From the NCBI RefSeq assembly GCF_054482595.1, contig NZ_CM137008.1: a stretch of DNA of 64,000 nucleotides; one strand, written 5' to 3'. The notes below the pieces were generated by a model that saw nothing but the letters and a program-made list of their open reading frames with translations, had not been told where the DNA came from and did no database searches. The position numbers and the translations under genes are program-made. Positions 27,725 through 32,787 of the stretch are shown here, piece by piece. The first letter of the stretch is position 1. Each line of letters begins with the position of its first letter.

Positions 27725-28810
27725 ATGGCTAGTGTTGATGCAGACTACTGCTACTCGTTTCCGGCTATACGTGGCATTCAGGCAGGCCGCCCCTTCTACA
27801 TTGCCACATGTCCGATGCGTATCATCCCCAAAATTTTTAGCTTTGATGAAAATGATGTTCCTCCGGAGTTGCGCGCGCAACGCACCCTCAATAAATCTCG
27901 CATCCCTGAAATGGTTCGTTATCTTCTTGAAAATCCTAAAGATTATGTATTTTCTGCACTAACAGCATCCATTGCCGTTGACGTCCAGTTTGATGAGTTT
28001 CCCGGCACGAATAATCTAGGGACGTTATGTGTACCAATGGACGCGCAAATCTTGATCAACGACGGTCAGCATCGTCGTAAAGCGATTGAAGACGCTTTAG
28101 ACGCTCGCCCGGAGCTGGGGCAGGATAACATACCTGTGCTGTTTTTTGTCGATGAAGGATTAAAACGCAGCCAACAGATGTTTGCCGATCTGAATAAATA
28201 TGCTATTCGCCCCAGTCCGTCGTTGGCATCGTTGTATGATCATCGGGATGCCAGTTCAAATTTGGCGCGTTATCTGGCAATGTCCGTAGAGCCGTTTGTC
28301 GGAATGACTGAGCTGGAAAAATCCAATATCAGTCAGCGGTCAAATAAATTATTTACGTTAAGCAGCATCAAGCAAGCTACCCGTGCGTTGCTGGGAAAAG
28401 ATCCGAAAAAGAGCGATTTTGAAGAATGTACCCAGATAGCAACTCGCTATTGGCAAGCTATTTATAATGTAATGCCGGACTGGCAATTAGCCGCAAAAAA
28501 GGAAGTTTCACCGGTTCAACTACGTCAGGACTATGTTCACGCTCACGGTATTGGTTTGCAGGCACTCGGACAACTAGGGTATACACTGCTGACAAATTAC
28601 CCAGAGCAGTGGCCTGATAAAATTGCTGCACTCAAAGTGTTTAACTGGCGCAGAAATAATCCGGATCTTATCAAACGTGCGATGCAGCATGGAAAGTTGA
28701 GCAAAACCAGTACGGCAATCCAACTCACCTGCAATGCGCTAAAAAACGCACTCTCAATTCCGCTTACTCCTGAAGAACAGGAGCTTGAAGCCCAAATGGT
28801 TGTCTCATGA
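27725..28810 (+). CDS. dndB: DNA phosphorothioation regulator DndB (DGQHR-motif protein)
   Basis: 361 aa with DGQHR motif (...ILINDGQHRRKAIEDAL...); first gene of the four-gene cluster. Confidence 0.85.
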   Translation: MASVDADYCYSFPAIRGIQAGRPFYIATCPMRIIPKIFSFDENDVPPELRAQRTLNKSRIPEMVRYLLENPKDYVFSALTASIAVDVQFDEFPGTNNLGTLCVPMDAQILINDGQHRRKAIEDALDARPELGQDNIPVLFFVDEGLKRSQQMFADLNKYAIRPSPSLASLYDHRDASSNLARYLAMSVEPFVGMTELEKSNISQRSNKLFTLSSIKQATRALLGKDPKKSDFEECTQIATRYWQAIYNVMPDWQLAAKKEVSPVQLRQDYVHAHGIGLQALGQLGYTLLTNYPEQWPDKIAALKVFNWRRNNPDLIKRAMQHGKLSKTSTAIQLTCNALKNALSIPLTPEEQELEAQMVVS

Positions 28811-30441
28811 GTAAATTAGTTCAGGCCTACGATTTGGCCGAATACACAGATTTTATTAATCAGGAGCAGTTTTCTGGACGCCCTCTGGCCGAATATATTT
28901 CTGAAGTTCAGAGAATTTATTGTGCGGATAAGCGTCCGTGGGTAATTGGCTATAGCGGTGGAAAAGATTCTTCCGCCGTGATCACGCTGGTGTATCTGGC
29001 CCTGCTTGGCCTGCCCCCGGAAATGCGCAACAAAGATGTTTTTGTAGTGTCATCCGATACGCTGGTGGAAACACCAGTGGTAGTAGATTTAATTAAGAAA
29101 ACGATGTTGCAAATTGAGGCAGGCGCAAAGCGTAATGGCCTGCCGATCACTCAACATGCGGTAACGCCTAAAACTAATGAAACCTTCTGGGTCAATTTAC
29201 TGGGGAAAGGTTATCCGGCCCCAACCCGCAGTTTTCGCTGGTGTACCGAACGCATGAAAATCAATCCGGTGAGTGACTTTATTAAAGAAAAGGTCAGCCA
29301 GTTTGATGAAGTAATTGTTGTCCTAGGTTCACGTAGTAGTGAGAGTGCCTCTCGTGCGCAGGTCATCGCAAAGCACAAAATTGATGGCTCACGCTTGGCC
29401 CGGCATACCACACTGGCAAATGCGTTTATCTATACCCCTATTGATACCTGGGATGTAGAAGACGTCTGGAAACTGCTGCGCGGCGCGTTCCGCTATGCTC
29501 CTGAATATATCGACGAATGGGAAAGCCCATGGGGTGGAAACAATCGTCCTCTATGGACGCTGTATATGGACTCTTCCGCACAGGGTGAGTGTCCCTTAGT
29601 GATAGACGAAAGTACCCCCTCTTGTGGGAACTCTCGCTTTGGATGCTGGACCTGTACCGTAGTAACCAAAGATAAAGCGATGGAAAGTCTGATCAAAAAT
29701 GGCGAAGAGTGGATGTCGCCATTGCTGAAATATCGTGATCTGCTGGCGTTTACCACCGATCCGGTGAATAAAGACACCTATCGCAACTATAAACGTCGTA
29801 CCGGTAAGGTGAGCTATCAGTACGCTAAAGACGGTGAAGATCGCAGTGCAGAGCGTAAGCATGTGCCAGGCCCCTACTGGCTCAAATATCGCCAGCAATG
29901 GTTAAAAGACTTACTGGAAATTGAGCGTGATTTAAACGCCCAGGGCCACAGGATTACGTTAATCACCGAGTCGGAACTGCACGCTATCCGCCAAGAATGG
30001 TTGAAGGATCCTAATGAACCAGACTGGTACGACACACTACCAGGTATCTACCGTGAGGTGTACCAGCGGGATCTGGATTGGGTCGTTGACGACCAATCAC
30101 GTTTTGACGCCAGCGATGCCGATTTGCTGGTGCAGATAGCTCAGGGGTTTGATGTTGTGCCAGAGATGGTGATGAAATTGATTGAGCTGGAAGTTTCAAT
30201 GGAAGGATTAAGTCGCCGTCAGGGGATTTTTGACAAACTTGGCACCATTTTAAAACAGGATTGGGGCAGTCTCGAAGAGATTCAACAACAGCAGGCAGCG
30301 CTACAAAAACGTAACGACCGGGATATTCACCAGGAAGAAATCACCAGGCTGGAAGCTGAACTTCAGGTTTTACAACGCAGAATTGTCGATGCCAGCGAAT
30401 CCTCTGTATTGGTCGGCGAGGAAAACGAACGTGCTCATTAA
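28807..30441 (+). CDS. dndC: DndC, PAPS-reductase-like ATP pyrophosphatase with Fe-S cysteines
   Basis: 544 aa; PP-loop SGGKDS; Cys cluster CGNSRFGCWTC; ATGA overlap with dndB. Confidence 0.85.
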   Translation: MSKLVQAYDLAEYTDFINQEQFSGRPLAEYISEVQRIYCADKRPWVIGYSGGKDSSAVITLVYLALLGLPPEMRNKDVFVVSSDTLVETPVVVDLIKKTMLQIEAGAKRNGLPITQHAVTPKTNETFWVNLLGKGYPAPTRSFRWCTERMKINPVSDFIKEKVSQFDEVIVVLGSRSSESASRAQVIAKHKIDGSRLARHTTLANAFIYTPIDTWDVEDVWKLLRGAFRYAPEYIDEWESPWGGNNRPLWTLYMDSSAQGECPLVIDESTPSCGNSRFGCWTCTVVTKDKAMESLIKNGEEWMSPLLKYRDLLAFTTDPVNKDTYRNYKRRTGKVSYQYAKDGEDRSAERKHVPGPYWLKYRQQWLKDLLEIERDLNAQGHRITLITESELHAIRQEWLKDPNEPDWYDTLPGIYREVYQRDLDWVVDDQSRFDASDADLLVQIAQGFDVVPEMVMKLIELEVSMEGLSRRQGIFDKLGTILKQDWGSLEEIQQQQAALQKRNDRDIHQEEITRLEAELQVLQRRIVDASESSVLVGEENERAH

Positions 30442-32431: not shown

Positions 32432-32787
32432 TGCTCCCGAATCGAATGGTGCTGAATCGTCAGACTGAAGAGCAGCTTAAAAGATTGAAAGGGTATACAG
32501 GGATCACACCTAATGTCGCTGCCCGATTGGCATTTTTCCGCTCGGTGGAGAGTGAGTTTCGCTATTCATCAGAACGGGATAATCGGAAACTAGATGGTTC
32601 GCTGGTGTTGGATAAGATTACGTGGCTGGGGGAGACATTACAGACTACGGAATTGGTATTGAAGATGCTTTATCCGCAGTTAGCTCAGAAGGATATGGTT
32701 AAAGCATGGGCTGCGCATGTGGAGGATGGGATTGCGGCGTTAAGGAATCATAAGAGTCTATTAAACTTTATTAAATCAATAGATTAA
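32431..32787 (+). CDS. dndE: DndE
   Basis: 118 aa small protein, 1-nt TGATG overlap with dndD; size and position fit DndE. Confidence 0.7.
   Translation: MLPNRMVLNRQTEEQLKRLKGYTGITPNVAARLAFFRSVESEFRYSSERDNRKLDGSLVLDKITWLGETLQTTELVLKMLYPQLAQKDMVKAWAAHVEDGIAALRNHKSLLNFIKSID

Follow-up and report, generated by a model that had tools for sequence, protein, structure and literature searches.

The closest described relatives of the locus analysed here are the dnd islands at leucine tRNA genes of Escherichia coli, which occur in strains B7A and 55989 (Ho 2015, PMC4373003). Among the Enterobacteriaceae, none of the dnd clusters recorded in dndDB has a dndA, and this covers leu-tRNA islands like the one in 55989; in Streptomyces lividans, dndA is part of a five-gene cluster (Ho 2015, PMC4373003). 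Phosphorothioation by the dptBCDE genes of Salmonella in E. coli is abolished by deletion of iscS and is not abolished by deletion of sufS or csdA, and no E. coli desulfurase other than IscS supports dptBCDE. The C328A variant of IscS is inactive, and the enzyme binds both DptC and DptE (An 2012, PMC3519819). The cluster used for this genetic demonstration that IscS is required came from Salmonella enterica serovar Cerro 87 and was expressed in E. coli K-12; its allele is not the one described below. Purified IscS and DndCDE assemble into a larger complex at approximately 1:1:1:1 (Xiong 2015), and C280 of Salmonella DndC is reported to be essential for its [4Fe-4S] cluster (PMC11662687). That enterobacterial clusters have no dndA and use IscS in its place is already textbook knowledge, published from 2012 onwards.

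Results

The window, i.e., the whole 64 kb stretch of DNA that was analysed, carries an intact modification operon. Positions 27725-32787 begin exactly with the start codon of dndB and end with the stop codon of dndE. The four genes (dndB, dndC, dndD, and dndE) are all intact, co-oriented, and matched over their full length by NCBIfam equivalog profiles above the cut-offs. Because neighbouring start and stop codons overlap by 4, 11, and 1 nt, dndBCDE can be regarded as a single operon.

27725..28810, plus strand: dndB, DGQHR-domain negative regulator of the operon (TIGR03233, 462 bits, cut-off 328; profile positions 2-354 of 355)
28807..30441, plus strand: dndC, PAPS-reductase-like sulfurtransferase (TIGR03183, 543 bits, cut-off 290; Pfam PAPS_reduct)
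30431..32431, plus strand: dndD, SMC/RecF-like ATPase (TIGR03185, 506 bits, cut-off 246; profile positions 2-650 of 650)
32431..32787, plus strand: dndE, small DNA-binding subunit (TIGR03184, 78 bits, cut-off 72)

DndB has its DGQHR motif at residue 113, and its accession (WP_000179014.1) is the same as in E. coli 55989, with which the window also shares the accessions of DndC and DndE. DndC, the expected acceptor of the IscS persulfide, contains an SGGKDS PP-loop at residue 50 and cysteines at 146, 262, 280, and 283. DndD has the Walker A motif GLNGAGKT at residue 41; its start is GTG 30431 in RefSeq and TTG 30383 in the longest ORF. No solved structure matching DndB or DndC by sequence was found; of the proteins checked, DndE and DptG alone have a PDB relative. 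DndE matches the solved DndE 4lrv with 205 bits (E 2e-60) and about 15 substitutions in 108 aligned residues. Since 4lrv is attributed to strain B7A in the reference list of Xiong 2015, the window carries a 55989-type allele rather than that of B7A.

The dptFGH genes adjoin dndBCDE divergently, and dptF, dptG, and dptH are intact, with matches to TIGR03238, TIGR03236, and TIGR03237, respectively, above the cut-offs. Together, dndBCDE-dptFGH sit in an E. coli genomic island at the leuX tRNA gene, beyond which lie the core genes yjgR, lptGF, pepA, holC, and valS.

34563..39638, minus strand: dptH (dndH), restriction component (TIGR03237, 1206 bits, cut-off 621; PADLOC DndH, 2854 bits; RefSeq start 39617)
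39598..40923, minus strand: dptG (dndG), restriction component (TIGR03236, 309 bits; 834 bits to the solved DptG 7exx)
40928..42577, minus strand: dptF (dndF), restriction component (TIGR03238, 454 bits; PADLOC DndF, 785 bits)
45927..47192, minus strand: tyrosine integrase of the island (Pfam Arm-DNA-bind_3, Phage_int_M, and Phage_integrase; RefSeq annotation)
47379..47463, minus strand: tRNA-Leu(CAA) gene leuX, which serves the island as attachment site and bounds it on the right (ARAGORN)

The island is rich in IS fragments and pseudogenes. At least 80% of the region 27000-43000 is present in each of 176 complete genomes, and many of these copies are essentially identical. The left 25 kb of the window (1-25000) is shared in one piece with NZ_CM172037.1, where it lies inside a pheV island. 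A permease and ArsR pair at 14885-16345 was considered as a sulfur transporter and rejected, as the pair is ArsP_1 and unrelated.

Two further genes lie between dndE and dptH, outside the modification operon.

32846..34006, minus strand: gene for a DndB-like 'DNA phosphorothioation-associated DGQHR protein 1', with an in-frame TGA at 33701-33703
34007..34525, minus strand: small membrane ORF between dptH and the DGQHR gene (marginal match to Pfam AgrB, 24 bits, cut-off 23)

The read-through protein of the DGQHR gene matches TIGR04172 over its full length (472 bits, cut-off 450), with one in-frame stop in the translation. E. coli NDM5 has an intact allele with GGA at this codon; the gene is knocked out by the single GGA-to-TGA change in the window and in most of the 30 E. 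coli carrier genomes sampled. The neighbouring ORF is named 'accessory gene regulator B family protein' by RefSeq, and it had no NCBIfam or PADLOC match. The two genes occupy the slot of the PT-sensing nickase gene dndI in Salmonella, and a plasmid of Aliivibrio wodanis has the same arrangement. The DGQHR gene was considered as a DndI homolog and rejected for want of sequence support: Pfam shows a DndB domain only, and a phmmer search of PDB sequences gave only a marginal unrelated match (7zal, E 0.0017) and no DndI entry. No DndI homolog co-transcribed after dndH was found in the window. It is conceivable, if rather unlikely, that the AgrB-like ORF and DGQHR protein 1 serve PT-based defence as a hitherto undescribed accessory regulator or effector.

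The earlier note had claimed that the window contains no cysteine-desulfurase-like ORF, and six-frame searches, which gave only noise, confirmed this. With E. coli IscS, SufS, and CsdA as tblastn queries against all six frames of the 64 kb, the best match reached 26.6 bits (E 0.076); it covers 38 amino acids on the wrong strand within dptF. A profile of the three proteins, run with hmmsearch --max against all 1428 stop-to-stop pieces of the window, gave a best E of 2.2, and two genuine cluster-linked DndA proteins from Priestia and Rhizobium gave 1.1. No dedicated dndA thus stands next to dndBCDE as in the five-gene dndABCDE type. The remaining 37 kb that complete the island in the sibling genome NZ_AP045737.1 likewise yielded no desulfurase, so that a dndA adjacent to the cluster, which the earlier note had named as an observation that would speak against it, was found neither in the window nor in the rest of the island in that genome.

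The same kind of search does find dndA where it is present. IscS detects the gene directly 3' of dndE on Priestia plasmid pBMG4 (E 6e-96) and in Rhizobium NXC14 (E 2e-92), and it matches S. lividans DndA (PDB 3vax) with E 9e-92. These positive controls show that the test discriminates, and the absence of dndA is therefore real rather than a problem of sensitivity. A Streptomyces plasmid match was rejected as a control because it is an orphan dndC without a cluster, and the Priestia and Rhizobium plasmids were used instead. No chance statistic is applicable to this absence; the relevant comparison is with clusters that carry dndA.

Genome data and the literature both support the further proposal of the earlier note that sulfur would come from a housekeeping desulfurase such as IscS, and the chromosomal iscS that it had asked to be looked for was located in sibling genomes. 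By Megablast, iscS was found in 5424 of the 5426 complete E. coli genomes, exclusively on the chromosome and never on a plasmid, with a median of one place per genome. NZ_CM172037.1 was rejected because it shares only the left 25 kb of the window, and E. coli YZLc23-1 (NZ_CP123266.1) was used, which differs from the window at one position over 27000-43000 (16 kb). In this strain, iscS occupies 1271635-1272849 as part of iscRSUA-hscBA-fdx-iscX and is unlinked to dndB, which is found about 1.9 Mb away at 4262805. The encoded protein is identical to K-12 IscS, including Lys206 and Cys328. E. coli IscS scores 616 bits over the full length of the PADLOC DndA profile and shares 42-43% identity with cluster-linked DndA proteins.

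Discussion

We conclude that the window carries a four-gene enterobacterial dndBCDE operon with DptFGH on a leuX island without its own desulfurase, and that the host IscS very probably mobilises the sulfur. In the pathway that we propose, the housekeeping PLP enzyme IscS, encoded in the distant chromosomal isc operon, would mobilise sulfur from L-cysteine and pass the persulfide on its Cys328 to DndC within an IscS-DndC-DndD-DndE complex. This complex would then swap a non-bridging phosphate oxygen for sulfur at GAAC/GTTC sites, while DndB would repress the operon and unmarked DNA would be attacked by DptFGH. For the relay of sulfur, the protein complex, and the motif that is modified, we follow published work on the systems of Salmonella Cerro 87 and E. 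coli B7A, and the allele in the window presumably behaves like them.

The same lack of dndA could be read in other ways. Provision of the sulfur by SufS or CsdA, for this allele in particular or under stress, appears exceedingly improbable. Both enzymes belong to the same fold class as IscS and cross-match it at about 1e-23, and SufS is generally described as the enzyme that takes on Fe-S assembly when cells face oxidative stress or run short of iron, which we count in its favour. However, cluster-linked DndA proteins are far nearer to IscS (298-308 bits) than to SufS or CsdA (71-91 bits), and loss of sufS or csdA leaves phosphorothioation intact, whereas loss of iscS abolishes it (An 2012, PMC3519819). 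That the source strain has a dedicated dndA at another chromosomal site or on a plasmid, and that this gene supplies the sulfur instead of IscS, is extremely unlikely. Although Megablast showed two iscS-like places in at least one E. coli genome, the whole island is without a dndA, and the median number of iscS places per genome is one, with none on a plasmid. Furthermore, E. coli is described with three desulfurases (IscS, SufS, and CsdA), plain K-12 supports dptBCDE modification with no added gene (An 2012, PMC3519819), and no dndA has been reported in enterobacterial clusters (Ho 2015, PMC4373003). A sulfur source other than IscS is the sole non-standard reading left for the absence of dndA, and a very improbable one.

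We also considered that the cluster might be a remnant, silent or in decay, that makes no modification, in which case the missing dndA would be without functional meaning. The abundance of IS fragments and pseudogenes in the island and the nonsense codon in the neighbouring DGQHR gene fit this idea. Nevertheless, it is very unlikely, as all seven dnd/dpt genes are full length and the region is largely preserved in the 176 genomes mentioned above. Moreover, the presence of dndB-E is associated with a DNA-degradation phenotype, and 55989 is among the Dnd-positive genomes (Ho 2015, PMC4373003). Because the restriction module attacks unmodified DNA, intact dptFGH beside dndBCDE implies working modification (PMC11662687).

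The significance of an IscS-dependent cluster at this locus is slight beyond correct annotation, and the enterobacterial pattern is already contained in the system name 'iscS-dndBCDE'. For predictors of defence systems or PT modification, a linked dndA should not be a requirement for calling an enterobacterial Dnd system complete. Modification by the island, and hence its self-protection from DptFGH, would rely on a host gene outside the island, which is a known constraint on moving the island into hosts that have no compatible IscS.

Compared with known systems, SspABCD likewise starts from an IscS-like desulfurase (SspA), and IscS scores 617 bits on the PADLOC SspA profile. However, the proteins downstream of SspA are different ones, the CpsCA modification that results affects a single strand, and the proteins in the window match Dnd rather than Ssp profiles best. 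The dndABCDE cluster of S. lividans and the clusters of Priestia megaterium pBMG4 and Rhizobium sp. NXC14 have dndB, dndC, dndD, and dndE homologous to those of the window. Unlike the window, each has its own IscS/NifS-like PLP desulfurase, which in pBMG4 and NXC14 directly follows dndE and has 42-43% identity with E. coli IscS.

The iscS and dptBCDE-dndFGHI system of Salmonella Cerro 87 is likewise a four-gene operon without dndA beside a divergent restriction operon, and its span from dndB to dndE is 5066 bp, compared with 5063 bp in the window. IscS is its experimentally proven sulfur donor, and Cys280 of DndC is common to both. The two loci differ after dndH, where Salmonella has dndI, encoding a 596-aa DUF262-HNH nickase (PMC11662687), and the window has the AgrB-like ORF and the broken DGQHR gene. 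The leu-tRNA dnd islands of E. coli 55989 and B7A (PMC4373003) share with the window the species, the tRNA-Leu site, the gene order, and the lack of dndA. DndB, DndC, DndE, DptF, and DptG of 55989 have the same accessions as in YZLc23-1, which is one base from the window in 16 kb. Apart from the DndE divergence from 4lrv noted above, the differences between these islands and that of the window are confined to IS and accessory content in other parts of the island.

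Gene organization of the dnd island

The dndBCDE-dptFGH unit is located inside a genomic island of the E. coli chromosome. The dnd genes extend from the dndB start codon to the dndE stop codon over exactly 27725-32787, and DndB, DndC, DndD, and DndE all score above the curated NCBIfam equivalog cut-offs, with the profiles matched end to end. Overlaps of 4, 11, and 1 nt between the genes indicate that dndBCDE forms a single operon. The restriction genes dptH, dptG, and dptF (dndH, dndG, and dndF) are on the opposite strand, and all seven dnd/dpt genes are full length.

Features of the dnd region and the right end of the island (window coordinates)
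27725-28810, + strand: dndB (equivalog DndB, 462 bits; DGQHR motif kept)
28807-30441, + strand: dndC (equivalog DndC, 543 bits; SGGKDS PP-loop and Cys146/262/280/283 kept)
30383 (RefSeq start 30431)-32431, + strand: dndD (equivalog DndD, 506 bits; Walker A kept)
32431-32787, + strand: dndE (equivalog DndE, 78 bits)
32846-34006, - strand: DndB-like (DGQHR) gene with an in-frame TGA at 33701-33703; full-length TIGR04172 if read through
34007-34525, - strand: 172-aa membrane ORF with a marginal AgrB match, downstream of dptH and preceding the DGQHR gene
34563-39638, - strand: dptH, intact
39598-40923, - strand: dptG, intact
40928-42577, - strand: dptF, intact
45927-47192, - strand: tyrosine integrase, adjoining the leuX end of the island
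47379-47463, - strand: tRNA-Leu(CAA) gene leuX, right end of the island

Beyond leuX lie the core genes yjgR, lptGF, pepA, holC, and valS. The island runs past the left end of the window; NZ_AP045737.1, which contains the whole window except for an insertion of ~2 kb, served as a stand-in for the rest, and its next 37 kb extends as far as nanC and nanM in the core genome. Of 5426 complete E. coli genomes, 176 contain at least 80% of region 27000-43000, and in many of these the sequence is essentially the same as in the window.

Between dptF and the integrase (43139-45603, + strand) are genes for an outer-membrane beta-barrel protein and an EptA-like phosphoethanolamine transferase (Sulfatase and EptA_B_N domains), the latter possibly a lipid A modification (polymyxin-related) cargo. 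Directly upstream of dndB, a frameshifted ProQ/FinO-family pseudogene (26916-27262, - strand), intact in E. coli 55989, follows an autotransporter gene (24187-26874). Positions 1-25000 carry fumarase-family, dcuC, and malic enzyme genes, two autotransporters, sodC, ArsP/ArsR, and abundant IS debris. They form one identical block at NZ_CM172037.1 770211-795210, within a pheV island in seven CUVET strains; the block has therefore moved between leuX and pheV islands. Compared over ~21500-23600, the IS3 transposase at 22382-23595 is uninterrupted, with a programmed frameshift, unlike in the sibling genome YZLc23-1 (NZ_CP123266.1), where a group II intron (ltrA) sits inside the IS3 element (11264-12933 of the extracted piece L001).

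In the sibling genome NZ_AP045737.1, this leuX island also has, at its far end ~31 kb to the left of the window, a gene for a 'phosphorothioated DNA-binding restriction endonuclease' (WP_000168567.1; 2788666-2789538, or 3667-4539 of piece L014) beside an HNH fragment. A phosphorothioate (PT)-dependent nuclease is odd in a genome that PT-modifies itself, unless the sequence contexts of the two systems do not overlap.

Search for a linked cysteine desulfurase

The earlier note stated that no dndA flanks dndBCDE, and this is confirmed for the complete island. K-12 IscS, SufS, and CsdA, translated from their annotated loci, were used as queries in a sensitive tblastn against the six frames of the 64-kb window; the best match, 38 residues long and on the wrong strand within dptF, had 26.6 bits (E 0.076), and IscS alone reached 23.9 bits (E 0.55). 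A profile of the three proteins gave a best E of 2.2 against all 1428 stop-to-stop pieces (at least 25 aa) of the window (hmmsearch --max), and searching the window with two cluster-linked DndA proteins (Priestia and Rhizobium) gave nothing above noise (best E 1.1). In the next 37 kb of NZ_AP045737.1, a desulfurase was neither annotated nor detected by tblastn. The search is sensitive enough to detect a desulfurase: IscS, SufS, and CsdA cross-match at ~1e-23, and with IscS as the query, the search recovers the solved DndA of S. lividans (3vax) at 9e-92 and the desulfurase genes directly after dndE in Priestia megaterium pBMG4 (6e-96) and Rhizobium sp. NXC14 pRspNXC14a (2e-92). The dedicated dndA of the S. 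lividans-like, five-gene dndABCDE type is absent beside dndBCDE.

IscS as the probable sulfur donor

A chromosomal iscS away from the cluster is seen in sibling genomes. By megablast, iscS is present in 5424 of 5426 complete E. coli genomes, always on the chromosome, with a median of one copy. YZLc23-1 differs from window region 27000-43000 by a single base; its iscS (1271635-1272849) lies within iscR-iscSUA-hscBA-fdx-iscX, ~1.9 Mb by the shorter arc from dndB at 4262805. Its product matches K-12 IscS at every residue, with both the PLP lysine (K206) and the persulfide cysteine (C328) present. On the PADLOC DndA profile, E. coli IscS reaches 616 bits over the full length, and it is 42-43% identical to cluster-linked DndA proteins; by sequence, therefore, IscS and DndA belong to one family.

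An et al. expressed dptBCDE of Salmonella Cerro 87 in E. coli BW25113 and its iscS, sufS, and csdA deletion mutants (PMC3519819). Modification was lost only in the iscS mutant and was restored by iscS but not by IscS C328A. Two-hybrid and pull-down assays showed that IscS binds both DptC and DptE. Purified IscS and the DndCDE sub-complex form a larger complex of approximately 1:1:1:1 (Xiong et al. 2015, PMC4611135). A donor role for SufS or CsdA, contradicted by these mutant data, is highly improbable. We give equally little credence to a dedicated dndA unlinked to the cluster, as plain K-12 already supports modification with no gene added. It is very unlikely that the dnd cluster is silent, given that its genes are full length, that it is widely conserved, and that dndB-E is associated with the Dnd phenotype. 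Furthermore, DndFGH attacks PT-free DNA (PMC11662687), and the intact restriction module therefore argues that modification by the window's cluster is active.

The absence of dndA is real, and the gene data, taken with these mutant and interaction studies, indicate that the earlier note was right to propose housekeeping IscS as the sulfur source, as reported for enterobacterial dnd systems. The window carries an intact dndBCDE-dptFGH pair with no linked desulfurase, and sibling genomes carry an unlinked canonical iscS. If this dnd allele behaves like its close homologues, as we infer, IscS would form a Cys328 persulfide from L-cysteine and hand it to the Fe-S/PP-loop protein DndC within an IscS-DndCDE complex. 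PT would be placed at GAAC/GTTC, DndB would repress the operon, and DptFGH would attack unmodified DNA.

The dndE-dptH spacer

A total of 124 genomes carry the spacer, with an identity of at least 99% in every case. Read through, the DGQHR gene scores 472 bits (cut-off 450) on TIGR04172, 'DNA phosphorothioation-associated DGQHR protein 1'. In RefSeq the two fragments are separate CDSs, one of 101 aa and one of 281 aa that begins at ATA. Among 30 carriers sampled across the 124 genomes, most, including 55989 and O157:H7 ATCC 43888, also have the gene annotated as split; in E. coli NDM5 the TGA codon is replaced by GGA (Gly), and the gene is intact and encodes 386 aa. The E. coli protein showed no similarity to sequences of solved structures, and no functional study of the gene turned up among the three papers found to name both DGQHR and phosphorothioate. 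Across the spacer (window 32000-35000) the G+C content drops to 35-36%, compared with 45-49% for the dnd and dpt genes, which suggests a separate origin of the spacer genes.

Comparison with known dnd systems

The Aliivibrio wodanis plasmid pAWOD_2 (13141-15044 of piece L017) has the same layout, with the DGQHR gene and small ORF between dndBCDE and dptH, and also lacks dndA. The DGQHR and AgrB-like ORF pair therefore resembles a conserved, as yet uncharacterised accessory to dndBCDE-dptFGH. The corresponding slot in Salmonella Cerro 87 is instead occupied by dndI, a DUF262-HNH nickase (PMC11662687). E. coli dnd islands are located at tRNA genes; those at leu-tRNA are 53-60 kb in B7A, UMEA 3176-1, and 55989, with one to three hypothetical genes between dptFGH and dndBCDE (Ho et al.). 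DndB, DndC, DndE, DptF, and DptG of 55989 share RefSeq protein accessions with YZLc23-1 and so match those of the window. Among 31 known dnd clusters, 19 are without dndA (An et al. 2012, PMC3519819), and recent papers call the system 'iscS-dndBCDE' (PMC11662687). For this species and this island type, neither the absence of dndA nor the use of IscS is new; both have been fully described before.
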